A DNA stretch of 64,000 nucleotides from Psilocybe cubensis (lineage: Eukaryota), in assembly GCA_017499595.2 (NCBI GenBank), contig CM039005.1, positions 2,976,001-3,040,000 of the forward strand. Direction: 5' to 3'. This document shows positions 6,804 through 51,122 of this stretch, one piece after another (position 1 is the stretch's first letter; each line of letters starts with the position of its first letter). Both the position numbers and the translations under genes were made by a program. The notes below the pieces were generated by a model. The model had not been told where the DNA came from. It was given only the letters and a program-made list of their open reading frames with translations, and made no database searches.

Positions 6804-8019
6804 CTAGTTTTTGGCAGCTCCCGCCTTGCCGATTGACCCAAGTATTCCCATGAATCGCTCACACTCCTTTGCAAACACCTCCGTCGCATACTCTACTGCA
6901 TCGGGAAACGATTTTGTGAGGAGACCTTCACCAAGAGCTTTCGCGTAGAGGGTTCTCCCTTCGAGGTTTATGTTCACCTATCCTGAAATTAGCAATATTT
7001 TAATAATTATATTTGGAACACGGACAAACCTTGCTGACTCCGTTCTTGATGCACTCCTTAAATAGAGCCTCTTGAAGGCCTCCTGTACCATGAAGACAGA
7101 TTGGAACTTCGCTATTGAATTCCGCACGAATTTTCTGCAGACTAAAATGATTTTAATGTAGTCCAATGCGATGAGTAGTAAAAGGCAATTACATGTCTTG
7201 GCGGAAGGTAGGTGGTTCCTTGTAGACCCCATGCAAGTTCCCAATGCTCGGAGAAATGATATCAGCTCCGGTTCTATGATTGTGTGTGTTGCGTTTAATA
7301 TAGGGGTACCGGATCCAACGTAAATTTTGTAGAAAAACTCACTGGTCCATAAATGTTTTGACTTTGTGAGGATCCGCCAGTCGACCGCTTGCAATCTCCC
7401 GTAGACCTTGCTCCCTTCCCTCTACGCGGCCAAGTTCAACTTCGACAGCGACCCCGAGTTGATGGAACCGATCGACGTACGGTTTGGTCAAAGAAATATT
7501 CTCTTCATCAGTCTAGGTGAAATCACAATTGTCATTAGATCTGAGAACCATGACAAAGAAAAAGGACGTACATCAGCACGACTCCCATCTATCATGATGC
7601 TGTCTAACGGGAACCCCTTTTCTGCAAGGTCAAGTGCGAGCTGGACCTGCTCCGGATCGGTAGCGTGATCTAAATGAACAGAGATAGGCACGGTCGCATT
7701 ATGTGCGCTACCAATGAAGATGGGTGAGGCTCTGTACGCGCGCATTAGCTGTTGAACTTACAGGTCGAGACAGAGTCGCAGAAAAGGGCCTTTGCCATAC
7801 ATGAACGGAGGCGGAAAGAACTGTAGAATAGCTGGACTTCGAGTACGTTCGGCTGCACGAACGAGCCCAAAGGCCATCTGCGCATCGTAGCTAACCAAAG
7901 ATGAAGGATAACAGTAGATTTTTGAGACAATTTACCCACCATGCGTGAGCTAACACTCCATACCCCTCCCTCTGTGCTCTCGCAAGGATCTCAAGAGTGC
8001 GATTTCCGGCCAAGGACAT
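6804..8019 (-). CDS. Class II ketose-bisphosphate (fructose/tagatose-bisphosphate) aldolase-like protein
   Basis: Spliced motifs VPISVHLDH, DSIMIDGS, VAVEVELGRVEG, PSIGNLHG, PICLHG and GVSK|VNIN match class II Zn-aldolase motifs. Confidence 0.85.
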
Positions 8020-8293
8020 TTTAAACTGATAATTTACAGTCCTCTTGGAGTAGAGGTTTCCTGGAAGCGAAGAATCAAGTCATCAAGTCAAGATGGAGCA
8101 GTCGAGGATCGCCATGAAGTCTTAGACCAAAGGTGGTGCAACATCCGCGTCGGTGTGGCTGTGCGCCTTGCAGTAATTCTCACGGTCCGTCAACTTGAAC
8201 TTGGCATTTGAACTGACTCGGTTTTCGGATATATACACATAACGTAGAATAAGTTTAGAAAAAAAGAAAACGTAAAGAACTTCCGTCAACCTC

Positions 8294-11028
8294 TTATTGA
8301 AGAGCAGCCGGAAGAGCGTTATATATTGGGCATAGGTCAAGCCATTCTTGTTTGATAATCTGGGCGTCTGGTCCGGAGACTTGCGCTGATGGCGCTTCGG
8401 CGAACACGACGGCTAGGCCTGCTTCGAGGTGCCAATCTAAATTGCAAGTCAATTCTATTCTTCTCGCATGCTAGTCACCGTTCATAACTCACCGATATCT
8501 GCGTTTACGAACACAAGTGGATGTAAATTAAATAATTTGCGGTCTATTGGAATCCCAGGAAAAATACATACGGCAGTGCAGGAACCTTGGCAAGCGTAAG
8601 TGGCACTGAGCTGATGAAAGTAGCATTGGTAGACTTACCAAGGTCCCGGGTTATCAGCTTTAAATCGAATAATTACAGTAGATCCTGAGTAATTTATTGA
8701 ATACGTCAGGTCAGTGAGGAAGCCTATCTTTCTCACCTTTCACCCCCACGACATCTCTCCTTGGAGGGTTGATATAATTTGGAGGGCCACTCTGTCCCTG
8801 TATAATATCAAAGACATGACCATGCAAGCTATATGCATATGACGTTCAGTATCACAAAACGTGAGGAGGGGAGCTGATTGGGTCTCACTGGAAAGGGCTG
8901 TTACAAAGGATTGTCTGGTGAGATTCGTCGATTGATTAAATCATGACTTACTGAACATGACCTGAGGGAGATAATGGTGAATGAGTACAAGTGTCTTTAA
9001 CCCTCGACAAGAGACGACCCACTTACCATTTGCAGATCCGTGTATCACCAGATCAACTATATCGTTTTTATTGATGACATATGTGTGTTCTGATGTTGCG
9101 AAATCATTCTCGCTGGTAAAGCCATTGGCGATAATGTTCAGGAGGGTCGGAACGGTCGGAGGGTGATATTTGATCCCATTTACCGTCCACTGTGTAACCA
9201 TTTTTTGTAAGCATGAATGAAAAATTGCAAAACAAATCGAAACACCTGAAGCTCGCCGTTGACCGTAGAGCGAGTGAACGACAGATCAATTGTCCGGGAA
9301 GCTGGACTGTTCCCGCCTGGTGCGCCAGGATTCTCCAAGGGGACCAGCTCGTGCTCCTTCAGGAGGTTATCAACGCTTCCTTTAGCTTTGGTCGTAGGTT
9401 CGGAGGCAGAAGCTCCCTCGTAGTGCAAAACCGCATAGACATTCTCAGGGTCAACTTTGATTATGATAAAATTATGAAATTTGTTAGTTCAAACTGAAAC
9501 GTAGTACGAACTTATGACTCACGGTTATCATTATCGCTATCATGCTGAAGCTCCATTGGGGCCCTAATCCAATAATTTTTAACAGGCTTATTAGCGTTTA
9601 GAATCACGGAATAACGTTGGCCGGCGTGAATATCAAATCCGTCGACCGTGCGGGGAACATGATTGATGCCGTCTACCTGAAATGAAATGTGAATCGCAAT
9701 CTGTGTTGTCTTATATTCTGTATAATACCTCAATGATTGTTAAAGGGTGGCTTTCGATAGAGAACGTGTAGTAAGCATAAACGGATGAGTTTATGACACG
9801 GAATCGGTAGCGTTTTCCTGAAATGACATTGATCCGAGGGCGTACGACTGATGGACCTCCTTCATATCTCCCAACGCCGTTAATCGTTCCACAATCAGGA
9901 ATCTGGTTAGTGCGTTATTGACGCTCCGTATCGATTGAGATATTTACCACATACCGGCTCATGATTTCCGTGGAGGTAAGTATCCGTCATTCCTGGAGCA
10001 AACTGGGAAGATATGTGACAATAATCTCAGAGCTCTCGACATAAAATGTACCTTGTGATACCAGTCGGAAAGTTGAATTACGGTGCTCGCGTCATCCACA
10101 TCATAGAGGCTTAGATGTGGATCAACAGGGTCTATCCTTCATGTTGGGAGAAGCATTTTATACACGATGTGTAAAGCTTACCGTAGACTACCAGGGCACT
10201 GGAGAGATGTCAAAACCTCATGCCACAGTAATAAAAAAAATAGATATACTGACCCACGTAGACCATCCACATATTGCGATGACAAATGGCTGGATATTCG
10301 GAATTTAATTACATAGTTCTCACAGTTCACGGGTGATCAAAATATAAAGAATAGACGTGCCTGTGATACCTGGAAGAGTCACAAATAATATATTGTCAGT
10401 GAAATAGATCAGTAAGCGTCAGCAACACTTACCAATGAGTGCCTGCCTGTCCATTTAGCGGTACTGCGCGTATGGATATTTTCATCAAAATACTCAGAGA
10501 CGGCTTATACTGGACCTACTATCATAGGTATAAGAGTGACCAGGCGCTATCGGACACTGGTTCACCATTGCCGCTACAATGATATTATTATAAGAGTTTA
10601 TCAGGTAGAAGCTTTTTCACTTACGGCCATCTTCCGAACCTGTTCTACGTTGAAACTAAAGACACGCGAAACACTCGTTGTTAATGAAGACATCAAACTA
10701 TATATCACATTATGCTTACCAATCCATGCCAATGAATCGAAGTGCTTCGCCTGTATGAGAGAAGTGAGCTTCAAGATTGTATTTGGAACTATGTTTAGAC
10801 GTACCTCATAGATGGATTCGTAAGTTGATTATTGACAGTGATATGCAAAGTGTCATCCTTTTGAGCTTGAATCAAAGTACCAGGAAACACCCCGTTTACA
10901 AGTACAGCTGGCCGTGAAAACCCATCAGGTGCAATATTTGCGTTGACAATGTTGAAAATGACATTGACATTCGCACTCATTGACCTGGTTGCCAATAAGA
11001 CGCAGAGTGCTACCGACTTAAGATTCAT
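8294..11028 (-). CDS. Laccase (AA1 multicopper oxidase), many exons
   Basis: Signal peptide. All four Cu-binding motifs reassemble across introns: SIHWHG, WYHSH, HPFHLHGH and [13 protein letters not shown]-terminus is ...[14 protein letters not shown]. Confidence 0.92.
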
Positions 11029-12563
11029 GCTGGGAGTGCACTCAGATGTGAAGAAAGAAGTGGGAGACGGTACAGTATTTTCGGTTCCGCTTGATCTTTT
11101 TATACCTATTGTCCTTGAAACCGACTTCTACATATGAATCGGAATGAATAAACCAGGTACTATATAAACGAGGGGTTGAGCCACAAACGTGCATTTAAAA
11201 ACATACTCCTGAACAGAATCAGTCAATCGCGTATCGACAACTTCGTGAAGTATGTGAATAAAAGCTACGTTTTGGGGTGGTGCGGTTTGGCTTCGCTCAC
11301 CGAAGAACCAAAACGGATACAAGGTGACATTCTAATAGCTTCCTCTATGCTTTCCAAGTGAAGAATGATCTTCTATAATGGCGCGAAGTGAAGCCAAGGA
11401 TTTGAGAAGCATGGTCAGGAAACCATTAATTTGTAGACGATCCCAGGTTCGCCTCATTCTGCCGATAGTGGTGGAGTAGATCCTACCGCCCTGACACCCT
11501 TTTCTGTACAATGCTGAATAGTGCGGTACCTTATATCTACTAATGTCGCCTTTTACGATCTAGTTTTGAGCAATAATCGTAGAGGTTAACGAGAAAGATC
11601 TTGCACGGCTATTTATAGACTACGGATGCAACATTTAACGGCACATGTATATTACACCACCACGCCAATACAGCCTATCCACCTCGAGAGATATTCCATA
11701 AAACTAGACTTTGGAGCCGTCAGGAAGCTGACTGTTTTTTATGTTAGATGACACATTATGCTCGGCCATGGGAACGGGTCGATGTTAACCCCGGAAAATG
11801 ACCCCAGCCAGTGGATGGAATTGATGGAACTGGATCCTTATCCACTGTTAGTCCAATGAGCCTAGAAAATGTAAGGTTGAGCGACCTCCATTCCAGTATC
11901 TCGGTAGCTTTGTACCGCTTCTGTGGGAAACCCGACGTTGTACGCTGTCTTGGGATACGGTGGTGCCTGGTGATTAATTAGCAGAAGCAATTGAAAAGAA
12001 CTTCGCAATCACATTATTCTGTAAGATATGTGGACAACCGGCCATGGGATCAGATTCACAGTACCATAAGCTTGTTACTTTATCGCTAACCGCGGTACCA
12101 TATGGTGAATTACTTTCGCGGAAAGACTTTGAGCGTATTTATAATGTATATCCAGACGAGTGGAAGCCAATCTCGCATAAGTGTAGACAATTTAACCCAA
12201 TGCAGTGGATCAATGTACATTACTCGTTGTCTAGAGCCTCGGAATTAGCTAGAAGTTATGATCCAGTGTAGTGTAAAGGTACTGTGCGGGGCCCGGCGAG
12301 TCGATGCTCGATGGAACCGGATCGTTCGCCATATAATCGATCGCAATGTCCCCTTGTGTTGGATATGTATAGTCAGTTAAGGAGAGGTGGTTAGAATGAA
12401 GTAAGTATTTGGTAACAATTTCTAGAACACCGCATATTATCTATTCTAACAGTAGGACAGATCCAACAAAGATTCAAATAATTGTTCAAACTAGCTCGAG
12501 GAGAGACACCTTCACTCATACAACGTGCCAAAACGTCGCAACTGAATGGCCAATTTCAAAGTC

Positions 12564-18837: not shown

Positions 18838-20137
18838 TCAGACCGATGACTTATCGTGCCAACGTCCAGATTGCATCTGGGAGATATCGGACCCCTCCAG
18901 CACAAAGCCCTCCGGTTTAGATTCGTTTAGTGTGTTGGAATGATTTGATGCATCAACAGTCGAAAGTGGTTTGATAAACTTCATACTGACGGACTCCGCT
19001 TCTTTGGTGTTCCCTGATAGAAGCTGTTTAGTGGTTTTATCAGTCCAGGCCTTTCCGTATGCAACTCTGTACGTGATAAGAAGTGGAGCAATGATCTGGG
19101 GTATTTTGATAGATATCAGTGTTAGCAATGGGAGTGATACAGTTTAAGCGACTTACCTGAACCTCTCCTAACATCTGAATAAACGTATTTTGAATGGGAT
19201 GGTTAAGAGCGAAGGGGACTAAGAAACACAGTGAGAAGACAGAGTAGATTGCCGCAGATTCCACAAGCATTGCAGCAATGCTGGTATAATGCGACCCATG
19301 CCTTCCTCCCAACACCTTCACCATCCTTCTGCGGAAAACAAGCAGTCTCGCGCAGATAGCTATAGTCATGGTCATATTAAGAGCCAGTGACAACCAGAAG
19401 TATGGCGCAGTAAAGTTGATGCTCCCAGCTACCCAAGGTGAAGTGGCAGAAATCTGCGTTAGCCACAGTATTCCAGTGGCTATAACGATAAGGCATCAAA
19501 AAAGGACAAAATTGTGATGGGCGCTCATACGCACTAACGGATCCGAGGTATGCAATGGCTGGAATTCCCATGACCAGATAGGGGGAGAACCTACACCCTC
19601 TGTAGATGACCATACATCGATACACCTGTGGATACAGCCATGAAAATTGATTTCAGAACGACCTCTGCATTGAATACTCACAACCATCCCATCCGCAAAC
19701 CAATTCGCCAAAACATACGCCACATTTGCTACTTCATCTACCGGAATGGAAAATTCAACTTCTTCAAAGGTGGCTGCAACGAAGCGGATCCGGTATCCTT
19801 TTCATCAGACTAAGCGAGTTTTAAAAATGCTGTACTGCGCACCTGGGCCTCCAGGGATGTTCCGATAGTCAATGAAGCTCAACTGCGTCATTTTCGAGCC
19901 TGAACCAATAATCAAAGTACCCAGGATGAATATAAGTGATATGTAGATTATCAGCGGAAGTTTGGACGCGAGATTCCTTTTGTTTGTCGTCCGTATGAGC
20001 TGTACGAAGGACATCATGAACAATGTGAAGACAATCCCGTAGGCGACTGCCGAAAGAATGATGCCAGCCAACCATGTCCGTTCATTCAAGATCGTGGCCG
20101 CATCCTCCTGAGGCCTCCAACTAGGATCCAACGACAT
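18838..20137 (-). CDS. Multi-pass (probably 7TM) membrane protein of an expanded agaricomycete GPCR-like family
   Basis: About 7 hydrophobic segments across the exons. Motifs NWFADGMV|MYRCMVIY, AAMLVESAAIYSV and QIIAPLLITYRVAYGKAW, followed by a polar C-terminal tail. Confidence 0.75.
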
Positions 20138-20500
20138 CGAGCAGAGGGTTTATGAAGGAAAGAATGACAGGAAGGATTGTAGCCGACTGCGCCGCTCACA
20201 AACCGAACCTCGGTATATGAGGGTTTACATAGGCTTTGCTGTCGGTTCCTCGCTGGTTGCCTTGCTGGTTTGACGGGTGTCGGACAAAATCCAGTGACCA
20301 GGGAGTTTTGGGCTAATAATGGAAAAAAGGTCTAAATTTAACGGAAAGGAACGCACAGACACCGGTACATGTGAATCATGGGAGAAAGATTCTGAACGAA
20401 TGTATTTCGGCTGTCATTCCATCCTCCATCACCCGACATTGTACCGTGGCCTAAAATATACTATTTCCCAGATCACATGCTAGCCTGTTACGCAGTAGTG

Positions 20501-21153
20501 CTATCGGTCTTTCACCTAATGTTGCCCATTAAAACTGACAAATTTATTAGTAGGGAATAGTACCTTTGAATGAGCCTTGAAGTTTTGTTCCGCTTCCGAA
20601 TAGACTTGGGTCCAATCGAAGCAAAGAGTATTATAAGTCCTTGAAGCAGTCGCTGCCGAGTTCTTCGCATTCTCCAGACCGGTATTCAAATTGCACAGAA
20701 GACTTTGTCGCAGATAATTCATGCAATGTCGAGTGAGGGATGATATGGGTTGTGAGGCATCATTGAGGTATTCTTGACGAATGACGTCTAGACATTTCAG
20801 CTGGTGGAATAAGGTAACGGTATACTTCTCCTTCCCTATATGAACTAGATGTCCGCCAGAAGGTAGCAGACTTCGATACTCCTCTTCACTATCAGAAGAA
20901 TTGATTCGATAATGTGTAGTCGACCCGATCAGCATCGCTACGGGCTCTCCTCGTTGTTTGAGAAGTGAGTGATCTAGAGTTGGATAATGAGCGCAATACA
21001 CCTAGTCTTCCATGGGGAAGCAATACCAGAAGCCGAGGGCCAGGAATTCCAGTACGATGCTGTAAGTATCCGAAAAACGCTCAGGGAGATGGCCATTGGT
21101 ATAAGGATTGTGGTGAGGGCGCTATGCCATGACCATTTCTTCGATACCGCCAT
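20501..21153 (-). CDS. DUF3328/UstYa-like oxidase with degenerate HxxHC motifs
   Basis: N-terminal TM anchor (MAVSKKWSWHSALTTILIPMAISLSVF), then an intron, then VTLFHQLKCLDVIR, LTRHCMNYLRQSLLC and TLCFDWTQVY. Probable last intron gives ...HSK|VKDR*. Confidence 0.85.
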
Positions 21154-21249
21154 CAATGCATAGGGAAGACATCACAAAGCACGCTTCAGACTTAAATATT
21201 AGCGAACAAAAAAGTCACAGGCTCTTGATTCTTTACTCGAAACTCCACC
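21154..21249. promoter_or_regulatory. Very short shared intergenic region between the divergent DUF3328 genes (probable bidirectional promoter or overlapping 5' UTRs)
   Basis: Only 96 bp separate the two start codons. Confidence 0.55.
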
Positions 21250-21891
21250 ATGAAAACTCTGTCAACATTTCTAGCTGGAGTTGTCCTGCTCAACCTATCC
21301 TTAGTAGCTTGGAATTGTTCGAACATACTTATACGACAAAAGAAAGGTATAACAATATGACCTCCTTCAAATTATCAAAATTCATGAAGCGTCAATTTAG
21401 ATTCTTACTCGTATATCGGAGAAGACTTTCCCTTCTTCCACCCATCCTTAACAAGGGAATATACCTCCTTGACGTATCAGGAGAGCATTCGGTTCGGTTA
21501 CAACTCAGAAGACAAAACCGAAGCAGCGATATGGCGTTCTCTGACGAATCAGCCAGGAGGATTTGGAAGGGCTCACCTTGGGGATCAAAGAAGATCTTTT
21601 TTGTTCACGTTCTACCACCAGTTTCATTGCATTTCTCAGTTTCACAGAGCTCTACAAAATAGAGCAGACGAAATAGCGACGTCGGAACACGTTGATCATT
21701 GTCTTCAGTATCTGCGCCAAACGCTGCTCTGCTCGGCTACGAACACTTTAGAACGCGGCGACTTCATGAAGCGCAATTTTGATACGGATCGAGTTGGCCC
21801 CGAATCTGGATGCGTAAACTGGGAAACTATATTTGGAGAGATAGATAGGAGTTGGCAGGACTTTACACGATGGAGAGAATTATGGAACTGA
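21250..21891 (+). CDS. DUF3328/UstYa-like oxidase with two canonical HxxHC motifs; 2 exons
   Basis: MKTLSTFLAGVVLLNLSLVAW (TM or signal), then |DSYSYIGEDFP...FYHQFHCI...EHVDHCLQYLRQTLLC...CVNWETIF. Confidence 0.92.
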
Positions 21892-22315
21892 GTCTATGAA
21901 TAGATATCCTGTTTGGGTCGACACCGAGTAGTCCAGTGGTGAGAAAGTTCAAGCTCCGCAATCTCTACTATCTATTTCGGAGACCGGGTGATATTTCAGC
22001 TCACTCACGCCCATCCTGTTTGGCATTCCTCTGGCAACACATGCATCTTTGTCGGCTGTTTGATTTATCTCAGGACCATCAGCTCGGGTTCGAGGTTCCT
22101 TTGGAAGCAAAGGACTATTGAATGTAATTACTAGTGTCTGAGACCTTCATTGTCTGTCTCAGGGGGGTGCCGACGCTCGGTCATATGCAATTCCCCAATC
22201 TGAGCTTCATTAGTGCCTATTCTCAGAAAAGTAATAACCGAATTTTGCGGGATGAAGGTCTGGTTAAACTTTGTATCCTCTTTTGTTGAAGCTTCCCATC
22301 ATTCCCTCACAGACT

Positions 22316-23493
22316 ATGATGAGCGAGACAACAGGGTTTGTAGAGTTTGTAGTCTCAAACAAAGTATTCCAGACATGGTACAAGGTAGTTGGGGACCTTT
22401 CAAGCTCGAGACGACGGCCATTAGTCGTACTACATGGTGGCCCTGGCCTAACACATGACTATATGTTGTACGTGTCGATTGATGCTGTCATTCAAATACA
22501 TTGTCACTAATTTTCATCTTAGGCCTCACCGCAAACTCTCAGAGGAAGGGTAATTCCAGTTAGTTATTGACCTCCAATATTTTGTCTTATTATTCCCAGT
22601 ATACCTGTGGTTTTCTTCGACCAGCTTGGCAGTGGAAAATCGTCTCATTATCGCGAAGCTCCCATCGACTTCTGGAAACCTGAGCTATTTGCGGATCAGC
22701 TCGATGGTCTAGTTCAACATTTAAAAATTAGCGACAACTTTGATCTTTTGGGTCACTCCTGGGGAGGTATGTCGCCGTCGTCAGATACTTGGGATGGATG
22801 CAATAACTGCTGCAGGCTTTTTAGCTGCATATTATGCCGCCAATCGACCTCACAGTGGCTATCGCTCTTTAATTCTGGCAAATGCACCCGCATCAATCCA
22901 TCTTCTTGAAAAGGGCCTCAACCTTCACCTTGACCAGTTTCCAAAAGAATTTGCAGATATGATGCGGAGACACGAATCAGAGAATACCACCAACTCTCCC
23001 GAATACTCCAAGGGGATATCACAGTTTGTATCAAAACATCTTTGTTCTCTGAGTCCCTGGCCGCAGGAGCTCAGAGATTCATTTGCTGCGAACGGGAAAG
23101 ATCCAACCGTTTCTAATTCCATGTGAGTGTGAGTCTATGTCAGTCAGTGGGTAACATTAAGCGATATCAGGATGGGCCCGTATCAATTCAAGATAACTGG
23201 CACTCTGCGCCCGTACTCGACAATCGATCAGCTGGGTAACATCAAAGTCTCAACTCTGGTGATTCATTCTCCCTTGGACGAAGTACATCAAATTGCCATA
23301 CAGCCATTTTTAAAGCATATCCAGCGTTGTGAACTACAAGAGCTACGTAATAGCACCCATCTACCCATGTTCGAGGAACCCGACAGGTAAATTTTCATTT
23401 ACTCCGTCATGACCGCTGTAGCATCACACTGACCCTACCCGTACGTCAAGGTACTTCGCAACATTGTCATCTTTTCTTTCGAAGAACGCATAA
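22316..23493 (+). CDS. Proline iminopeptidase / L-amino acid amidase-like alpha/beta hydrolase (peptidase S33), copy 1
   Basis: Motifs [20 protein letters not shown], nucleophile [12 protein letters not shown] and [11 protein letters not shown]. Confidence 0.9.
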
Positions 23494-23605: not shown

Positions 23606-24657
23606 TTACAAAGTTGAATGCTGAACTATGAATATGCCTTAAAAATTGGAAATCAGACGCTAGTGTTACCAGGGAGGCAGAAAATTGAAAGCCATTGAGG
23701 ACATACCGTGAGTTGGATCATCGTCTTCTTTATTTTGCCACCATTCCATAGAGCAGGAGTCGGACTCGAAGCCAACTTCGTCGGAACATTCAATTTCGAA
23801 AGTTAATACATCGTCCCATGCACAGTGAAAGGTTTCTTTCCAAGTTACAGGAACGCCAGGAGTAATTTTGACATTGGCAACGGTTGTAAGCTTCCGAGGA
23901 GAACTCGAGAAAGACAATGATTTAGTATCAATAGGTTGCCTTTGGTCTAAACGATGGATCGATACAAGGAAGGAGCCTCCAGCTGAAGCAGTCGTATTAG
24001 CCGGAATCATCAGTTTTAATTCACACTGTTCCATCCCGAAGTCAATCGCTCTAAATTGCACAATGGTAGATATCTAATGCAAAAAGGTAATCAGACGACA
24101 TTAAACGAGCTGTAGACTGTGAAGAATGGTGATACCGATGGGGATATTGCTACCCTTCTGTCTTCAGGGGACACATATCCTGTATGTGACATATATCGCT
24201 TCGGGTCGTCATCGAAGACTTTCTTGGGATATTGAGCGTCTATTTGAGCGATGACCTCGGGATAATTGAGAAGTGTCCTAGGTTCTGGTGGAGACGGTCT
24301 TCGAAGCTTTTCCAAACCAATGAAAGGGGAAGGTCGCTTGAGATTGTTATACTGGCCTTTCCTGATTATTGGAATAGAGGTGGGCGATGTGAGGTATGAA
24401 GCATCCATTGTAACTAAACAATTGACGACTGTGCACAGGAGACACACAATCACAACCCACTGGGAACTCATGACGTTGGGCTGTGGTTCTGGTCTTCGGA
24501 CGATTGTTTCTCCACAACTGTCGCATACGCATACATGCTGTTCGGATGCATCCTCTCGCGAGTGTAAGTCGGTACCAGATGGTAGTAGAGCTATTCTACT
24601 CTCTTCTGAAAGTGTCTTCTTCGACGGCCATAGTCGATGTAAAGGGTTTTTGAGCAT
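23606..24657 (-). CDS. Single-pass membrane protein with a probable But2 C-terminal-like beta domain; 3 exons
   Basis: TM segment WVVIVCLLCTVVNCLVTM, then STIVQFRAIDFGMEQCEL, FHCAWDDVLTFEIEC and MEWWQ; ends HGIFIVQHSTL*. Domain label is from recall of similar basidiomycete proteins and is unverified. Confidence 0.7.
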
Positions 24658-25146
24658 AGATTTTTTGGCCGGAGAGCAATTTCAGGATGATTAAATGGCG
24701 AGACCGAGTTGTGCCGTCGATGCAGGCAGCAGAAGACCTTCTTGATAGATGACCACCGTGAGAAACACTTTGTTGATAATCAAATACTTGCTCAGGTCCC
24801 TGAGGTGCCTTGTTGCGTTGCCACAGTGGGAGCGAACCAAACATCCGTGACTAAACGATGCTGTACCCAGGATGCCAGAGAAAGTATCTATATCAAGGCG
24901 AAATCAAATGGAGCACATGCAGCGCGGTAAAAATGATGATTCCAGAGGTCTGCTTTCGTTGTCGGGCGGGTATAAGGGAATATATCCCGCCGCCTAAGCT
25001 TCACGCTGTCGTCAGTGGTCCGTTAAGGAATCAACAGATCACATGCCGATATAGTCCAGGTCTGTTCATTAACGGCTCAGTCGCCTTGCCACTCTCTTCC
25101 AGATACCGCGATACCCAAACTGTGGTAAAATCTTCGATAGCGAATC

Positions 25147-35842: not shown

Positions 35843-37110
35843 TTACAATGAAAGATGTATTGTTTTCCCTTCCCTTGCGCTTTTCTCAATAGCATCAATG
35901 AGCTTATGGTTCTTGACTGCATCCTCGATGGTGGCATGATGGCTCCCATGCTCGGCAAAGTCTTTCCAAGCAGCTCCAATAGTATGCACGGCACCTGTCG
36001 GACCGTCCAAATCGACCTGCGTCCCATTCAAATACACCTCAGGCTCGACAACGCTAGGGAAGGGCGAAGACGACTCTATCCGTATAACGCCCTCGTCGCC
36101 CTCGATCTCCCACATGTACATCCGTCGCCCTTTTCCTAGGGCATATCCAGATCTCCAGAACAGGTTGGCCAGTACACCCCCTGGTAAAATTCCCGTGATG
36201 GAGAAATGGTCCGGGTTCTGTGCAGCATAGGTTCGTGGAGTGGGTTTTCCATCATTGTCGACCACAGTGCCCGTGGGATATGCTATGGTACTCGTCGCCG
36301 TGATGCTCGAGAAGTCTCCGAGAAGATAGGAAACCGTGTCAAGTAAATGAAGAATGGGTATGTGAAGTTGTGTGGCTCCTGATACGATAATTAATATCAT
36401 TCATTCCAAGTGAATAGAAAACATACCATTTTTATGCTCCACGAGATAAAGATCCTTCTCTTTGGAAAATGGAATCCATAGATGCCCTTCCCTCGGTATT
36501 AGGTTCGTCTGTAGGTTAAAGGTATCAAGTATGGAACAACATATCACCAAAATTAACTCACAATATTGGTGGACCTGACAGTACCAATAATACCCGAAGA
36601 CAATAACTCTCGGACCTAAATTAAAACCATTAAATACCGCACAGCCGACGTAGTATTACTTCTCACCTTCTGGATCGCTGCCTGATGTCTCGTTTGAAGA
36701 CCCACGATGGTCCTTACACCGTGAACACGAGCAGCTTCTGCGATCTCCTCTGTCTCCTCCAACGATGCCCCTGCTGGCCATTCGATAAAGATGTCCTTCT
36801 TCGCTTGAATGACGGGAAGCACCAGTGCTTTGTGGTACGGTGCCTTGACGGAAATCGCTACTAGGTCTACGTTCGGATCGGCAGCGATTTGCTCCGTGCT
36901 CCCGAAATACGCCTCGATGGGATGTCCAACCTCTTTCGAGTACTTCTCAGCGGAGGCGCGTGCAGATTCTTCTGAGCTGGTAGAGACGGCAACGAGGTCG
37001 TATGTGTTCTTGAGAGAGTCCTGGAGTAGTGCAGGTCCGAGGACAGCCGAGGCCCACCCTGTAGTAGACAAGCCAACGAAGCCGACTTTGATCGGGGTGG
37101 TGGTGGACAT
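35843..37110 (-). CDS. Gfo/Idh/MocA-family NAD(P)-binding oxidoreductase (Gal80-like)
   Basis: Motifs IKVGFVGLSTTGWAS, VDLVAISVKAPYH, IFIEWPAG, VGLQ, GHLLD-like IPILHLLD and WEIEGDEG. Confidence 0.88.
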
Positions 37111-37687
37111 GGTGTATTGTGAGCGAAAGACAATGTAAAATGGGATGAAATGTTGTTGATCGATACCGATTTCTGTGTTCCTCTACTTAACGTCTGCGGA
37201 TAGTCGGAATCTTGTCAGTCTCAGTAAGCAAAGGACTGGTTAGTATTGCATTGCATTGGTAACAAATTGGTAAGCATTGTACTTCAAGACACACATTGGA
37301 TGATGCTCCTTCCCCGTCGCATGGTGTAAATCGAGTTACCGTTGAATAATGAAGAAAGAGGAACATGACAAAAGTTGTGTTTCGAGCAGGCTCCGAGGTC
37401 GAAGCTCTGGTTCGAGCGGAGGCAACTTACGCCCGAGGTTGATTAATTGATTGATGGAAGCAAGCGGAGTTTGAAAAACGGTTTTCCGTTCATATAGGGG
37501 ACAACAAGGGCAACAAGTTCATCCTAGGACTATTATTTTATACACATGTCGGTGCACTCTTACTGGAGACACTCGTTTGAGAGACCCGTGTGAGAGGTTT
37601 CATAGCTGTGTCATTCTAATGGAAAGATGCGGATAAGCGCTTTGGATGCTCAAAAGACGACAGACTCTAAGAAGCATAGAAAGACAG

Positions 37688-39589
37688 CTAAAGTGGTACA
37701 GCTTCTACTGACTGTAAGAAGTCATTCTTGGGGTCGACCGAGTGGAATTTGATCAAACGCCAGCCGGTGCTTTCCAGGAGAGATTGTAGACCCAATACAG
37801 TATGTTCCTGAGCGTTGAAATAAAACATCATCTGTGTGGCAATCAGTACATATGATATACTCTTGTATCGCTAAACTCACAGTTAAGTCTAATGTATATG
37901 GACTGTTGCTAACCGCGCCATAGTTAGGGAGAAGAGGTTCCGGTGCTTCCTTGTAGTATGTCCCTCCATTGTCAGAGAGGGTCTCGCTGTCGGAAGAGCG
38001 TCTACAAGCATAGGGAAGGACGTTGTCGATGACAATGAGCGTGGTTTCAGGCGTCGCTGCTTCGCGCAACCGCCGCAGAATCTTGGCCATATACGGCTTG
38101 GGCCAATTGTGTAATATGTGCTTCAAAAAGAACACGGAGGCGTTTTTGACAGGTTGGACATCAAAGAAATCTTGTGCTGCATTTTGAACGCGTCAGTATA
38201 TGTGAATTATCATGATCATTCGAGAGATTTGCAAACCTTGCAGCTTGACCCTATTGCTAGAGAGCGCATGAGGATATTTCTGCGACCAAAACTTTGATAA
38301 AATTCAAGGTGAGATCGTTGAAGGACAAGGAAAAAACTGGTTATCGTACCTTTTTGCCCTCTTCGACAACAATAGGAAGATCTTGAATAACGATATTCAG
38401 ATCGGGGTACCTTTCAGCCAGAGGAGATATCGTAACTCCTATGCCACCTCCGACGTCAACAACGGTGGAATCTGGCTTCAGCGAGTTCCAGTCAAACGCT
38501 ACAGGCCCCACATTTGAGTCTGTGCATCACATTAAGTAGACACAACCAACCTTTAAATACCAAATCAGGCGATTGAATCGCACCCATACCCTTCATCGCA
38601 TATCCAAATCGTCGATGCCTGAACAAATTGTCAGGTTGTTGGAAGAACTTCCAGTACGTCGTATCGGTGTTGAGGCCCTTGGAAAATATGGTATCCGTAA
38701 TTTCGTTGGAATGTCCGAGGACCGGATCTTTAAGCACGTCCCAAGCGATCGCACTGCACTTATGATCGAGGTCCAGACTGATTGCAGATCAGTTTGATTA
38801 GATTGTGTGTGCGCGAAATCACAACGTACTGATGGCTGATAAGCGCAGGGAACCCAGTTGATTCGTATTTGCTTTCTGGACTATCAGGTATCAATTGTCA
38901 CATCGCCCCAGTGAACGTAGGTGCATACGTACTCGGAAAATATTTCTTTCGAGGGTTTCCCGGTGTCCAATGTGCCAGAAATTCTATTGTTGGTGAAGAC
39001 ATATGGTTTGACCTCGCGATAGATGTGGTGAATGACCAGATATCTCATGATTCGCCCTGTAGGTATAAATGTCAAAAATTTCCTCTTGCGATAAAATAAG
39101 ACACTTGCCGAGCTTGGAAGGATCGAGCCCACATTTCGCAGCGATCTCGTTGACGTGAAGTCCCTGACACAATGGTCTTAAGTAGGTGAAAGTAGAATTG
39201 GATGAATACTTACCTCTGGACCAGCCTCTCGCAAAATCTCTGTGACATTAGCCTCCAAACAAGTCCTCACCGCAAAAGAGTGGTGTTCCTACAATGTAGA
39301 CTGTAAGTAATGGATACATATTCAGGGAACATCGACGTACTCCGAGTGCCAATTTGTAAAGCGAATCTGTAGGAGGAAGTAGAACCGCTGCCAGCTGCAT
39401 ACAGGCCGCAGCGGCGACCTTTACTGCTTCAGCAACGCCAGGTGCAGAACGGAAGGCCTCTGAGGAAGGGTCGAATCCAAATGAGTTCAGATCCGGGATA
39501 GAAGTTTGTGATTCGAGCGTGAGGCGCTCTAATGTGGCGACCGAGTCTGAAATGAGACTGGCCAACTGGGAGATTTGACTAGCAGACAT
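37688..39589 (-). CDS. SAM-dependent O-methyltransferase (Methyltransf_2, secondary-metabolism type)
   Basis: Motifs VVDVGGGIG, IVIQDLP, HDFFDVQPVKNASVFFLKHILHNW and FNAQEH, with an N-terminal dimerisation region. Confidence 0.92.
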
Positions 39590-41522: not shown

Positions 41523-43662
41523 TTACGCCTGTGATTCCTTCATCATTTTATTTTCCATCTGCTGATTGAGTACCACATTATGTACTGGTAGCATGTCTTG
41601 CGCTGCCTTCTTCCTGCGGATCATTACCACCATGGCAATGTACATAATGCATCCAAGTAATGCCACAATCTGTTGACGTTATTGAGTTGTATTTTTTTTC
41701 ATGTCATTATCGTAACCGCTTACACCACTGAAAACTGATGCTCTCCACCAGATAAATGATGAAGTCAGCAACGCTCCTTGAATAGGGGCGCCTATCAGCC
41801 CTCCAAATCCTGAGGAAGAAGGGTAAAAATTCCGAAAAAATGCAAACAGATTGTCATGATACTTTCCAGCGACAGTGAAGCTGATTCCCATACGCAGACC
41901 AATCTCGGAAACGTCATCTGCGAGATTAGCGATCATTGGCGCCATTAATGCAATGTCTGTCCACTGTATTAGTATACAGTGATTTTAACGCTCGTAAAAT
42001 TACTCACAGGCACCAGAGAAGAAGCCATACACCACTGCAAAGAGTACCACACTCGAGACCTCGGATATGCCTATCATGAAAAATATAAGGATACTACAGC
42101 ACGCTGTGCAGAATACCACAAGATTTCCGATTCCAAATAGACCTCCAGAGAACCCCGCAAAGATCCTTCCAATACATGAGCATCCGTTCATCACAACGAG
42201 CTGGAAACATGCAACGGTAAGTTCACCCGCAAGGGACGAAACATGATATAACAAGTTACCGAATAAAACGCAAAGTTTGGGCTTAGATGATGCGTGATCG
42301 AATCCAACTGCAGGTAAAAAATGGGGTAGAAAAAACCTATTATGAAGAAGAAGAAGCTGTAGTATGTCTCGTTAGTATTGTGTTCTTTCCAGTTATTCAT
42401 CTTGCGTACCCCAGGGTAGAAAATATATAAGCTTTATCCTTCGAGAACTTGACCAACGATTTCTTCAAATCAGGCGTCGTAGCAGGGGGTGGAAGCCTCG
42501 TCTTCATAATCAAACAAGCGAGCAGGAGAAGTCCAGAAATCATCCCAGCGTTTGCTCTGGTCGCCTTTGCGAATCCAATCTTTGGGAGAAGGTTGTTGAG
42601 CATGATAGGATGCACTACGGCCCCAAGGGATGATCCAGTCGCCACTACGGTCATGACTAGACTCCGGCGTTGTTTGAAGTAGTGCGAAAGGATGGCGACT
42701 GAGGGGACGTAGATCATCCCAACTCCTAATCCGACACCTAGCCCTTGAGATAAGAATATTTGATAGTATTCTCCTTTCTGTGCAAGAGAGAGCATAAACA
42801 ATGAGAATGAGATGATCGCGGATCCTCCCCAGAGTAATGCATAGCTAAGAATGAATTGGTCGCTCAGCCATGAAGTGGATGTGGATACAAAGAGCTTCTA
42901 CGTACAAGTAACCGCGATCGTACACTCTCCCTGCTAAAAGGCCTCCTGATATCACCAAGAAAGCGTTTATGCTGCCGATCCATCTGTATTTCTTCTATTA
43001 ACATGCTCATAAATTGATGCAAAAAAAAAAAAAAAACCTCACGCAATGGATGATGAGCTTTCTTTCGTCAGATACTCGCGAACATAAAAGTCTGTGTGTA
43101 ACTTCAGTCACATTTGCTCACAACAAGGAAATGGGATGAAGTCTGAAGAATAAAACATAACAGACCTTGAAAGACTCCAAAGGAGGTAGAATACCTTGAC
43201 AAATTTATTCACAAAATGAGCATAGGCCATCGCAGGAGAGGGTAAATTGCCTTTTACCCGAATCCGCAAAACTGAATGATAAACCTGAATAGAACTAGCG
43301 TGTCACTAATTCCTTTCAACTCGCGAATCGATGTCGAACACATACGCGCCTAACGCAGTCCCCCAGCCAACCAATCCCCCCTCTGGGAACGTTGGTCCCA
43401 TGGAAGGTGCTGCATCCACTTTTCCAGCCGGTTGTACTTCTTTCGGCACCTCCTTTGACTTTTCGGAATAAATCGACGGTAGGCTCTCCGTAGAGGTGTT
43501 TGGTAACATGTATTTTGATTGGCGACCGCGGTCTTCGACAACTATCTGCTTCGAAAAACGTCTTGGAGAAGCGAAAGGATCGACGTTGAACACCGCAGGC
43601 GCTGAGGCGACGCTACCTCGGTAATATTTGACATCCCGGGATACATAACCCGAGGGTTCCAT
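41523..43662 (-). CDS. MFS transporter, monocarboxylate-porter (MCH-like) family
   Basis: Motifs FPEGGLVGWGTALGA, SFGVFQ, WIGS, YYQIFLSQGLG, ATGSSLG and EIGLRMG. Confidence 0.9.
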
Positions 43663-45006
43663 TGTCCACAAGTGCTATGCAATATGCGATTAAAAAAAGA
43701 GTGATATGAGGTGAGTCGGAGACCAGTTCTGGTCCTGCCAGGTGTATCTGAATGAGTGTATGTGTCTAGACGAGCAGCTAACAGAATTTTACGCTTCAGA
43801 CTGAACAAAGCCTTTTATTAGGAGTAACTGGGCGTAACTTACGCCCGTATGCGATGCCTGTCCTATTAATACAAATGATTTACGGAATACGACACTCGGG
43901 TTCATATATCTATTTAAACATCAACATATCGCCCCGATGAATGCAAACAAGGTTGTTCTCCAGGCAATAACTGGGTGGGTGGTCAGTGAATAGATCTGAG
44001 GACTAAGTATTGGTCAAAAGTCCAAAGGATTTTTTTGTAAAATAGATGATGGTGCGTTCAGTGACAATATTCGCGTTGCCTGTGGTATTCGTATGAGCAT
44101 CAAGGTTACGCCGATAGCGACAGCCACGATCGCAACTACGTCACATATAATACCGAGTTCCTGTACGTATCCTGGAGATTGTCCACGAGCTGTGTTGATA
44201 TGTATTAGCATCCACATATATTTGACAAGGTGAATCCACCCGTGTTTGCTTCGTCACGAGTGGATTACTATGGCCTAACTCTATAGAGATAATAATCAGA
44301 AAGGACGCCCATGGCGGTATCAGTCACTAGGGATGCCGCTCAATCATCATTGAGAGGTGACGAGGTACGCCTTCGAGGTCTTCCCTCTAAGAAACCATCG
44401 CTGTAGCCATGCTGACTGGAGCACCCCCCAAACGTCGGGAATGGGACGCACCTTGGCGTGATAATGCCAGCCTGCAAGAACCAGGGCCTAACAAAAATTT
44501 AAGGAACGAATAAATCAAACTATTGGTAACACAAAAGCGAAGAATATCGACTCCAGCGAAAGGTTGTTTCGCCACAATAAGATACAATGCCGTTTCAAAC
44601 TCAGACGGCACGCACTGAAACGTACCCTTGCGATGGTACAATAATCCATTCTATCTGCTTGCGATGTATAATGTCCGGTCAGCCAAGCACCACCATCATC
44701 CCTCGCTGTGTAGTGCACGGTTCGTCTTTCTTTTCCTCTGGCATTATACATTCTACATACGTATCATGCTGACACGTTACACCAGCGACAAGCCATGCTG
44801 TCTGGCGTCTGATTTGGCACTAATGCCAGGAAACCCTCCGTCCGCAAGTTACGCATAAGTAGTCGGTCACCCTACCAAACCCATCATCAAAACACGTTAT
44901 TCCTATCAAGAGAATTACAGGGAAGCGTAGGACTACTTGCGCAGTATCGGCGGTCCTGAGATGCATGCCCCCACTGTGAGAGAACTTGGCCGTTATCAAG
45001 GGGCAC

Positions 45007-45014
45007 TATAAATA
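45007..45014 (+). promoter_or_regulatory. Putative TATA box of the nitrate transporter gene
   Basis: tataaata about 170 bp upstream of the ATG at 45180. Confidence 0.4.
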
Positions 45015-45179
45015 TGTTCCACATATCTATTTGGGGCTGTATTGTAGCATCCTTCAAACGCAAGTTATTCTCTATTGAGCATTATTCTAAACTGATCGTA
45101 TGAACTCGTATAATTCAGCAGCGGCTCTCTGTCCAATACTCCAACCTTTCCGTGCAACCAATCGATATCGAACTCCCCA

Positions 45180-47143
45180 ATGCACGCACAATCTCGAGAA
45201 CCTCCTTCTTTCCAATGGGCTCATCTCTGGCAACCCGCCATTGTCAATCCAGTCAATCTGAAGAGCTATACCATACCATTATTCAACTTATGGGATCCAT
45301 ATGCGAGAGCTTTCCATCTTAGTTGGCGTACATGCTGTTTTACTGATACATCATGCGAAGCTGATACACGTTCTGCAAAGTGGGATTCTTCGTAGCGTTC
45401 TTGTCGTGGTTCGCTTTTCCTCCACTCATACCCGACGCAATCAAATCAGACCTCCACCTCTCCGCTGCAGAGGTGGCAAACTCAAATGTCATCGCCTTGA
45501 CATCCACCTTCGTCATTCGAGTCATTGTTGGGCCACTTGTTGATAGATATGGACCGAGAAAGGTGATGGCGTATTTGCTCATTCTTGGTGCCATCCCATC
45601 TGGGCTAGCAGGGACAGCACATGATGCTGGAACCCTCTATATTCTTCGGTTCTTCATTGGCATCTTGGGGGCTACATTTGTTCCCTGTCAGGCATGGACC
45701 TCGGCGTTCTTTGATAAAAATTGCGTGGGGACTGCGAATGCATTAGTTGGAGGCTGGGGTGAGTGGCTCCTGATTGGTTCTGGAGAAATTATCTGATGCC
45801 GTTATATTTGCATACGCAAGGAAACATGGGGTGAGTGGATATGTCCCTTGTTTGAACTTGGAATTGAATGCACTTTAGGGGCGGTGCGACCTTTGCTATT
45901 ATGACGTCCCTTTTTCAAAGTTTGACGTCCAGGGGGATGACATCCCATACGGCATGGAGGGCATCCTTTGCGATTGTTCCGTAAGTGACATTGAACATTC
46001 TGAATATGCATGTCTATAACTGTGGTCCAGTGTACCAATTCTTCTCTTCGTAGCAGGATTGGTATTTTTATTTGGCACTGACCATCCAGCTGGTAAATGG
46101 TCAGAGAGGCACAACACCCCCGCTACACAACTAGCACTTCGTCAAGGATACCAGACCCAATACACTCTGCATCATGACGAGAGCGCAACGGAAAAGAATA
46201 TCCTTGGCGGCGACAGCGAAAAGGCCATCGTCAGCATCACTGATCCTGCAACAGACTCTGATGCTTCAGATGGGGTTGTAGTGCAGTCGACGGTGGACAT
46301 TGCCGTTAACGAAACGCTAACTGCAGCGGTTGCATTGAAACTTCTCGTCAGTCCGCTAACGTGGCTTCCGGCACTGGGATATCTGACTACCTTTGGAATC
46401 GAGCTCGCCATTGACAGCAGCATGTCGGGGGTGCTATTCACTTTGTTCAGCAAAAGACGACCGGGGTTCACGCAAACTACGGCTGGGTACTACACATCAA
46501 TCTTGTAGGTACCTTTATTGTCCTAGTGCGGCTTTTTCAGAGCTAATCTTGTGTGGATGGATAGCGGGTTATTGAACATAGTCACGCGCCCTCTCGGGGG
46601 ATACCTGGGGGATGTCATATACCGGTACTACGGTACCAGGGGAAAGAAGGTATGGACCGTAATCTGCGGCCTGATCATGGGTGCCTCCCTCCTCGCTGGC
46701 GGGTTCTATCTGCAGAACCACCGTACTGCAAACGATGCGCAGCGTAAGGGCAATTTATGGATCGCAATTATAATGTCGTTGGTTCTGACTGATTCTGTTC
46801 GCACTGGCATATTCCGCAGTCTCTGTGCTCATGGGCATCTTCTCTGTCGCTGCCATCTTCTCAGAGATAGGAAACGGAGCGAATTTCTCCCTCGTTCCAC
46901 ACTGCAATCCATTCAACAATGTGAGTATTTTTCTTGGGTTCTCAGCATTTTCACACGGCCCTCAGTGTTTTTTTAAAGGGATTTATGTCCGGGCTTGTAG
47001 GCTCGTTCGGAAACTTGGGTGGCATTGTTTTTGCTCTGGTGTTCAGATTTGTGCCGCAGGTGGGAAAAGCGTTCTGGATTATGGGTGTCCTCTCCATCGC
47101 TATAAACGTCTTGATCCTGCCTATTCCTGTACCCAAGCTGTAG
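45180..47143 (+). CDS. nrt2: High-affinity nitrate transporter (NRT2/NNP family MFS)
   Basis: Motifs RAFHLSW|LGFFVAFLSWFAFPPL, GATFVPCQAW, GTANALVGGWGN, GNGANFSLVPH and GSFGNLGG. Confidence 0.95.
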
Positions 47144-50500: not shown

Positions 50501-51122
50501 CACTCCAGAATTTCCGGAAGGGGGGCGTATTACCCTCGGCTTCAACGAGCTTACTGTTGGAGACAGCATTGAGCTGAAGGGTCCCATCGGCAATTTTATT
50601 TGGAAAGGCCGTGGTCGGGCTTTCTTCAACAATGAAGATATTCGTATAGCAGAAATTGGGCTCGTCTGTGCCGGCAGTGGAGTAACACCCATCCTTCAGA
50701 TCATGCGAGCGATTTTAAACGACCCTCAACGTTCCAAGGACGACAAGAATTCGTTGACCAAAGTCTGGGTTTTGGACGTTAATCGCGACTTTGAAGATAT
50801 TCTGTGTAAGAAAGAGATTGACCGTCTGGTGAGAGAAAATCCAGGGATAGCACATGTTCATTACAGCTTGACGGGAAAGGAGGTACCTGATGGATGGGAA
50901 CACTCGATAGGGAGGATCACTGCTGATATGCTGGTGAAACACCTTCCTCGACCCGGCCAGGATAAGGTGGTCTGTTTATGTGGACCCCATAGTATGGAAC
51001 AGACTGTGAAAGGTGTGTTGATTTTATAATATTAATAATACCAACAGAATCGACATGATATGTTTTCAGGCTATCTAAGTGCTATTGGATGGGATGAAGC
51101 AAAAGAGATTGTTCTATTTTGA
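47577..51122 (+). CDS. niaD: Assimilatory NAD(P)H nitrate reductase
   Basis: Moco domain (LTGKHPFNTE, FVRNHGAVP, TLVCAGNRRKEQN, IGGRSVKWL, CFCWCFW, GMMNNW), cytochrome b5 domain (HPGG) and FAD/NAD domain (RAYTP, CAGSGVTP, LCGP). Confidence 0.96.

Follow-up and report, generated by a model that had tools for sequence, protein, structure and literature searches.

A conserved histidine-depleted DUF3328/UstYa paralogue lies head to head with a canonical family member in Psilocybe cubensis

It was as recently as 2025 that proteins of the DUF3328/UstYa family were found to be binuclear copper enzymes, which form dimers and functionalise unactivated C-H bonds (PMC12435403). The cyclochlorotine hydroxylase CctR of Talaromyces islandicus is a membrane-anchored, disulfide-linked homodimer whose HxxHC(x)nHxxHC motif lies on the dimer-interface helices, the four histidines being planar in the AlphaFold model; these four residues bind the coppers, of which inductively coupled plasma mass spectrometry gave two per monomer, and activity, which requires O2 and electrons, is completely lost when the conserved histidines and cysteines are changed to alanine (PMC12435403). 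A still-unidentified accessory protein delivering electrons or Cu(I) has been postulated for CctR, and studies of ApnU and AprY are cited as having reached the same conclusions (PMC12435403). Reactions ascribed to the family are halogenation, hydroxylation, macrocyclisation and isomerisation, and the three DUF3328 genes of the cyclochlorotine cluster (CctO, CctP2 and CctR) are assigned to separate reactions (PMC12435403). The double HxxHC motif is used as the signature for recognising DUF3328 genes related to peptides that are made by ribosomes and modified after translation (RiPPs) (PMC12048977). Here we describe a divergent pair of DUF3328 genes, a canonical gene A and a histidine-depleted gene B, in a stretch of 64,000 nucleotides from Psilocybe cubensis (contig CM039005.1 of assembly GCA_017499595.2, positions 2,976,001 to 3,040,000 of the forward strand), which as a whole is called the window and whose own numbering is used throughout.

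Loci with multiple DUF3328 genes, thought to act on one product, have reportedly been found in the ustiloxin dikaritin RiPP cluster (UstYa and UstYb) and in the cases of PhomYa-e and VicY. The P. cubensis pair resembles UstYa/UstYb in that two or more DUF3328 genes share one locus, and differs in its composition, since those paralogues are all described with two HxxHC motifs whereas one of the two is histidine-depleted here. With CctR the pair shares the Pfam family, an N-terminal anchor, a predicted lumenal helical domain, motif helices placed at the modelled dimer interface, a fitting spacing of the disulfide cysteines and, in gene A, a complete HxxHC...HxxHC. However, CctR is a homodimer of one gene product from an ascomycete non-ribosomal peptide synthetase (NRPS) cluster, whereas this locus lacks both an NRPS gene and a context of the cyclochlorotine type and combines a canonical copy with a paralogue that has one histidine per motif. 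The paired HxxHC motifs had been called a proposed metal site in a first-pass annotation of the window, made from the sequence alone; the CctR copper measurements and inactive alanine mutants put that assignment on firmer ground (PMC12435403).

Gene A (21250..21891, plus strand) encodes a protein of 195 amino acids (aa) in two exons, with coding sequence (CDS) at 21250..21346 and 21401..21891, a TGA stop at 21889-21891 and a 54-nt GT..AG intron at 21347-21400. It carries both canonical motifs, HQFHC (21616-21630) and HVDHC (21688-21702), together with YLRQTLLC and a last motif, CVNW, that is of the CxNW and not the CxDW type. Gene B (20501..21153, minus strand) encodes a paralogue of 183 aa in three exons (CDS 21153..21027, 20973..20564 and 20515..20501, stop included), separated by introns of 53 nt (20974-21026) and 48 nt (20516-20563). 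In its first motif, HQLKC (20792..20806, aa 99-103), a lysine stands in place of the second histidine; in its second, LTRHC (20723..20737, aa 122-126), a leucine stands in place of the first; and the stretch at 20612..20716, from YLRQSLLC (20693-20716) to CFDW (20612-20623), holds two further invariant cysteines. The start codons, ATG at 21153-21151 on the minus strand and at 21250 on the plus strand, are separated by a divergent intergenic spacer of 96 bp (21154..21249) with a TTAAATATTA stretch. Once spliced, the coding sequences measure 588 nt for A and 552 nt for B, with one terminal stop each.

Both proteins are assigned to PF11807 (UstYa/DUF3328) through their second exons, with 46.0 bits for A and 45.5 bits for B against a gathering cut-off of 25, and these are the sole matches to that family in the window (150 of the 154 open reading frames (ORFs) of at least 85 aa were scanned). 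Gene A shows the UstYa signature of two HxxHC motifs, with four histidines and two cysteines per monomer; gene B is a family member by profile, yet lacks the two-HxxHC signature used in the literature. At only 25% identity the two are an ancient pair of paralogues and no recent tandem duplicate. A hydrophobic anchor is present in both first exons (19-residue Kyte-Doolittle maximum of 1.93 in B, from residue 12, and 1.79 in A, from residue 3). The first-pass annotation had reported the 96-bp spacing, both motif pairs, and a minus-strand frame intact in its anchor, YLRQxLLC and CxDW, and all of these hold under the present gene models.

The models rest on a comparison of positions 20300-22100 with contigs of four sequencing runs (X1, X2, X3 and X5). 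The X1 contigs skip the three introns at 20516-20563, 20974-21026 and 21347-21400, whereas those of X3 and X5, which are DNA-type contigs with total sizes of a genome, read through all three; X1, whose run type is not on record as RNA, was taken as transcript-derived because the skipped segments are exact GT..AG introns, and it therefore holds spliced transcripts of A and B. The X1 contigs jump from 20973 to 21027, from 20513 to 20562 and from 21344 to 21399, the last two giving the introns when cut two places further right, and both introns of B are skipped within a single 2060-nt contig. The gene ends at 20501 and 21891, implied by the first-pass annotation, are right according to the spliced contigs. 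On the upstream sides, the B contig ends at 21149 and the A contig begins at 21317, which are limits of contigs and not start sites.

Public annotation reflects the pair imperfectly. Exon 2 of B is 100% identical to 'hypothetical protein JR316_0009402 [Psilocybe cubensis]', and the public models of B (140 and 176 aa) deviate at both ends from the RNA-supported one, the N-terminus of which resembles the Crassisporium orthologue P0006. A protein search with gene A returned no 100% identical protein, and gene A may be lacking from the public P. cubensis annotation.

The histidine-depleted form of B is shared by a large set of proteins. A protein search with B gave 76 homologues at E<=0.001 among 88 candidates, and all those with a species name come from Agaricomycetes, in five orders (Agaricales, Boletales, Polyporales, Russulales and Gloeophyllales). 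In the alignment, motif 1 reads H-[Q/E]-x-[K/R/E]-C in 76 of 76, and 71 of the 76 combine K or R at the second histidine of motif 1 with a residue other than histidine at the first histidine of motif 2, where L (41), I (10), M (7) and H (4) were counted in 75 homologues. The exceptions are three Mycena proteins with HTxHC, one protein with E and a full second motif, and one partial match that is unscorable. Eight residues (H56, C60, H82, C83, Y86, C93, C117 and W120 in P0002 numbering) are invariant in 74 aligned sequences, among them one histidine and one cysteine of each motif. At a broader scale, a B profile searched against 1.84 billion cluster representatives (clusters at 50% identity) recovered 2732 at E<=0.001 and 174 at E<=1e-30; the best 150 include 126 with the [K/R]/non-His combination (74 R and 52 K), three canonical and eleven off-pattern sequences, and K or R occupies the second-histidine position of motif 1 in 127 of them. 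A GGH element upstream of motif 1 was considered as an extra ligand specific to B and was rejected, as it is too patchy among the representatives.

In a phylogeny of 228 A-type and B-type rows (FastTree), a branch with a Shimodaira-Hasegawa-like support of 98 sets apart 85 of the 89 [K/R]/non-His rows. The core B clade comprises 90 rows, including five that are partly reverted, and four long-branched R-type rows fall outside it. The ratio of non-synonymous to synonymous substitution rates (dN/dS) lies at 0.17-0.24 when metagenomic B genes are compared (five comparisons, dS 0.29-0.36), with 0.56 in one nearly identical pair, and is 0.19 for neighbouring A genes. Differences among strains (X1, X3 and X5) are six synonymous and three non-synonymous in gene B, and eight synonymous, one non-synonymous and one intronic in gene A. 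B is therefore a large, old Agaricomycete subfamily of the form H-x-x-[K/R]-C plus x-x-x-H-C, in which two of the four histidines are left, and it is under purifying selection.

The pairing of A and B is likewise widespread. At least 17 further loci (Agaricales, Polyporales and metagenome contigs) have the two genes adjacent or nearly so; a search with gene A alone gave five relatives. Consecutive accessions for the pair occur at a second P. cubensis locus (KAH9484723, KAH9484724), in Crassisporium funariophilum (KAF8155879, KAF8155880), in Pholiota molesta (KAF8193011, KAF8193012), twice in Mycena polygramma (KAJ7602492/KAJ7602493 and KAJ7629961/KAJ7629962), in M. rosella (KAJ7699277, KAJ7699278) and in M. 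leptocephala (KAJ7792081, KAJ7792082), and M. vitilis has consecutive JGI identifiers on one contig. A single gene separates A from B in Fibroporia radiculosa, a member of the Polyporales (FIBRA_08409, FIBRA_08411), and in Hypsizygus marmoreus (Hypma_007153, Hypma_007155), and a 10,179-nt contig of a close relative probably carries both genes. A B-type gene is also present in Pleurotus ostreatus. A metagenome scan with the B profile yielded 16 loci, of which 11 carry a B-type gene, and six of these 11 an A-type gene as well. A and B are head to head in L007, L009 and L010 (the latter two being near-copies), on the same strand and 3 to 4.6 kb apart in L002 and L003, and convergent, 4 kb apart with two genes between, in L004. 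The 96-bp spacing, which the first-pass annotation linked to a putative tight co-regulation, is specific to the P. cubensis lineage: two other head-to-head loci have putative spacers of 325 and 783 bp between the ATGs, and in some loci elsewhere one or two genes stand between A and B.

The A partners form a coherent group in which both HxxHC motifs and an LExGDF stretch are invariant (13 type-A sequences). For 19 pairs, the distance matrices of A and B are correlated with a Mantel r of 0.87, a value reached by none of 2000 permutations, and identities to the window pair drop together (88/75, 69/66, 64/54, down to ~30/37%). This co-divergence, with identities falling step by step in both genes, indicates that A and B are an old unit that was inherited together, and the unit was duplicated as such in P. 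cubensis. The first-pass annotation had listed a lack of conservation or of pairing in other genomes, a pseudogene-like dN/dS and a lack of expression as outcomes that would speak against B. The data show the opposite in each respect: the HQLKC type is conserved among the homologues and among the best cluster representatives, consecutive or near accessions and six metagenome loci pair it with a canonical copy, its dN/dS is about 0.2, and the X1 contigs show it transcribed and spliced. Among the 16 metagenome loci, four (L011, L013, L014 and L015) have DUF3328 genes of the canonical, type-A-like kind only; in L013 and L014 these bear the A-partner signature LExGDF...CRDW, on contigs too short to show neighbours.

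For a complex of the lumenal domains of A and B, all three model runs gave an interaction prediction score from aligned errors (ipSAE) of 0.92, compared with 0.00 for the highest-scoring of three controls. The models have 226 to 230 contacts, a partner predicted local distance difference test (pLDDT) of 79 to 82 and at least 90% contact agreement between runs. Of 78 solved complexes 51 attain the ipSAE mark applied, and so do 2 of 108 mismatched pairs; for eukaryotes the figures are 39 of 65 solved pairs that have no like older complex and 2 of 126 unrelated pairs. A sequence search of the PDB found no DUF3328 structure, which means that the model does not pass by reproducing a solved complex. 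The modelled interface consists of both motif helices and the conserved-cysteine regions of both chains. By spacing, C93 and C117 of B (P0002 numbering), at +10 and +34 from the motif-2 cysteine, fit C190 and C213 of CctR and may be equivalent to its inter-monomer disulfide cysteines. In the model, B retains a family-type dimer interface that is compatible with A, which does not imply that A is its preferred partner. The monomer model of B (mean pLDDT 65.7) gave no fold match in the PDB at E<=0.001.

Taken together, the locus contains a real, transcribed, divergent DUF3328/UstYa pair in which A has a full HxxHC...HxxHC and B is histidine-depleted, and B is most likely a copper-site-depleted partner of A. 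Both proteins would be held in the membrane by their anchors, the helical domains facing the lumen of the secretory pathway. Having lost two of the four histidines, B should be unable to build the four-histidine binuclear copper site on its own and would not be a CctR-like oxidase by itself. As B conserves the exact helices that the family uses for dimers, an A:B heterodimer is the simplest reading: B would pair with A through the family helix-bundle and disulfide interface, giving a complete copper centre in A and a degenerate one in B, and B may serve as a structural, substrate-handling or copper/electron-relay subunit. Heterodimers of an enzyme and an inactive paralogue exist in METTL3-METTL14 and in trypanosome AdoMetDC-prozyme. 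By analogy, these would share with A:B a complete subunit joined to a conserved, ligand-losing paralogue that keeps the dimer interface, although their folds and chemistry are unrelated and the A:B heterodimer is a model. For the BURP-domain peptide cyclases we know of no paired histidine-depleted partner. These are plant proteins, and as described they resemble the DUF3328 enzymes in having four planar histidines, two coppers and oxidative peptide chemistry (PMC12435403).

The pair is accompanied by further genes, which were followed by comparing the window ORFs at 14-30 kb with the metagenome loci (tblastn) and by scanning the ORFs of six loci against Pfam. Beside B on the same strand lies a gene for a multi-pass membrane protein (18841..20149, minus strand, several exons, approximate limits), with 45-54% identity by tblastn in L001, L002, L003, L004 and L006, where it always adjoins B. 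It matched no Pfam family, and its nearest ESM-Atlas clusters are unnamed ones of Basidiomycota, with a weak likeness to DUF6534 (0.89). Beyond A lies a gene for an alpha/beta hydrolase of the proline-iminopeptidase family (22268..23387, plus strand, several exons, approximate limits), recognised by pieces of TIGR01250 and by PF00561; orthologues adjoin B in L001 and in L004, where the copy exceeds the TIGR01250 cut-off of 167.65 with a score of 173.7, and the gene is conserved beside the A/B pair in three lineages. A gene for a single-pass membrane protein with a But2 C-terminal domain (PF09792) follows at 23669..24681 on the minus strand, in at least two exons; at 21.2 bits the domain is below the cut-off in the window, and it is clear in L007 and L010 (43.5 and 48.1 bits). 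Each of the five independent lineages sampled has a But2 homologue adjoining the pair (L001, L004, L007, L009 and L010). The But2 domain model is a beta-sandwich with a predicted template modelling score of 0.68 and four invariant cysteines, and its fold search gave weak, mixed beta-sandwich rows with no clear structural relative. A second paralogue of the proline-iminopeptidase family lies at 25141..26275 (plus strand), so that two copies flank the But2-domain gene in the window; the metagenome loci have one copy only.

Gene order and orientation around A and B differ from locus to locus, and a gene set that is reshuffled yet persistent fits selected clustering better than frozen synteny. As judged from these gene comparisons, A, B and the But2 membrane protein, often with the proline-iminopeptidase-family hydrolase and the multi-pass membrane protein, probably constitute a small conserved gene set, which would act on a common substrate, possibly a peptide. 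In contrast to UstYa/UstYb, which lie beside a Kex2-repeat precursor, no such precursor was found here, either as a tandem DNA repeat of coding size at 10-36 kb or as an ORF of at least 40 aa with at least three KR sites or a 5-mer repeated three times at 11-34 kb, scans that would miss a single-core precursor; this is therefore not a canonical dikaritin cluster. Pfam detected no methyltransferase in the six loci scanned, and no tyrosinase was seen in the Pfam scan of window ORFs. The surroundings of the pair look like a conserved cluster without a recognisable precursor or core synthase.

The explanation that we consider best as a whole, an A:B heterodimer in which one copper centre is complete and the other degenerate, within this small conserved gene set, has in our judgement about an even chance of being correct, and several observations weigh against it. 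In the complex modelling, close cousins of a true partner pass in 10 of 12 cases, and the A:B pass is thus indistinguishable from A:A or B:B; the heterodimer suggested by the first-pass annotation accordingly stands as regards the compatibility of the two chains (0.92 versus 0.00) and not as regards the choice of partner. The secondary structure and contact register of B fit both parallel and antiparallel motif helices, so that the two lost histidines may belong to a single copper site or may each have been a ligand of a different one. The loss of histidine is not absolute, for the second motif is still complete, as HTRHC, in some B proteins of Mycena. Linkage is not always close: the Armillaria genes lie on one contig at a distance of 7 to 27 accession steps, and in six named species, among the best 120 of 360 A matches, A and B are on different contigs, which does not amount to firm evidence against linkage. 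No A gene is seen in five of the 11 metagenome loci with B (L001, L005, L006, L008 and L012), but the contig ends within ~3 kb of B in these and they are hence uninformative. Finally, UstYa/UstYb and PhomYa-e are reportedly treated as separate enzymes. The same holds for clusters with several DUF3328 genes such as that of cyclochlorotine, where separate enzymes serve separate steps (PMC12435403).

This last point leads to an explanation that we regard as credible but less likely than not, namely that B works as a stand-alone homodimer with a remodelled site and performs a different step of the pathway of A (non-oxidative, copper delivery or electron transfer), the two genes being linked without their products binding each other. 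Its site might, for example, hold one copper on the two remaining histidines and cysteine, or be metal-free with the Lys/Arg taking over. In its favour, characterised clusters assign CctO, CctP2 and CctR to separate reactions and the chemistry of the family is broad, from halogenation to isomerisation (PMC12435403); a cationic residue is conserved at the lost histidine (127 of 150), suggesting new function over mere loss; the cysteines retained would serve a disulfide-linked dimer of any kind; and linkage without adjacency, as in Armillaria, suffices. However, B keeps at most half of the ligands required in CctR, whose alanine mutants are inactive (PMC12435403), while the strict one-to-one co-divergence and co-duplication with A and the confident A:B model, which count for the heterodimer, are also compatible with separate action. 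An inherited synteny, in which B and A were left side by side by an old tandem duplication and B drifted to an unrelated role with no functional tie to A, appears unlikely: the linkage outlives rearrangement, A and B being head to head in some lineages, on the same strand around one gene in others and convergent around two genes in others still, the But2, iminopeptidase-family and membrane-protein genes are reshuffled around the pair, and the pair has been duplicated as a unit in P. cubensis, even though two paralogues at 25% identity were probably born side by side and neighbouring genes often persist by inertia in related genomes. The idea that B is a decaying, non-functional copy or incipient pseudogene can draw on the two missing histidines, on the inactivity of the CctR alanine mutants (PMC12435403) and on the slightly larger number of non-synonymous strain variants in B (3 of 9 versus 1 of 9 in A), but is refuted for practical purposes by a frame that is intact, transcribed and correctly spliced, by the same two substitutions fixed across five named Agaricomycete orders and at least 126 clusters at 50% identity, and by a dN/dS equal to that of A. 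Kept with A in many mushroom species, B is more likely a functional partner than a dead gene.

The DUF3328 family itself is known; what is newly described here is a large histidine-depleted subfamily coupled to a canonical partner. In the literature searched, which does not extend to most subscription journals or the CctR supplement, no histidine-depleted DUF3328 subfamily, DUF3328 heterodimer or DUF3328/But2 cluster is described, as judged from titles, abstracts and passages of text. The B subfamily is a natural experiment on the copper ligands, in which the scaffold, the dimer cysteines and exactly one histidine and one cysteine per motif have been kept beside a canonical copy, and which indicates the ligands that can be dispensed with; it also offers a concrete candidate for the accessory subunit missing from the CctR study. 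It is missed by the two-HxxHC rule for picking DUF3328 genes and, if the proposed reading is true, both motif-based and repeat-based RiPP miners would skip the A/B cluster, a conserved mushroom gene set with a product yet to be assigned, whose central pair is present at least twice in P. cubensis. A more far-reaching proposal, possible but doubtful at present, is that the DUF3328 enzymes of mushrooms include an obligate heterodimer of a canonical subunit and a half-ligand paralogue that is non-catalytic, copper-delivering or electron-relaying, and that this pair with the But2, iminopeptidase and membrane-protein genes forms a widespread cluster.

Some further observations concern gene B and its surroundings. 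At position 20716 (codon 129 of gene B) X1 has G where the window, X2, X3 and X5 have A, and the G turns the tyrosine of HCMNYLRQ, invariant in 74 homologues, into histidine; the other nucleus or strain may carry this as an allele, or it may be an error; being U->C on the transcript strand, it is not A-to-I editing. The 2060-nt X1 contig that covers B extends 1311 nt beyond 20300 into the same-strand membrane-protein gene; spanning two genes (~18989-21149), it reflects read-through or overlapping untranslated regions and is no proof of a single transcript. Other Pfam-matching gene fragments of the window lie at 7491-11127, 35846-38192, 42400-45793, 48297-51026, 52027-53703 and 60724-62937. They comprise a class-II fructose-bisphosphate aldolase, a laccase-like multicopper oxidase, a Gfo/Idh/MocA oxidoreductase, an O-methyltransferase (at ~38 kb, outside the compared 14-30 kb stretch), two transporters of the major facilitator superfamily (MFS), a nitrate-reductase-type gene with molybdenum cofactor (Mo-co), cytochrome b5, FAD and NAD domains, a carboxylesterase, and ankyrin-repeat and AAA genes.

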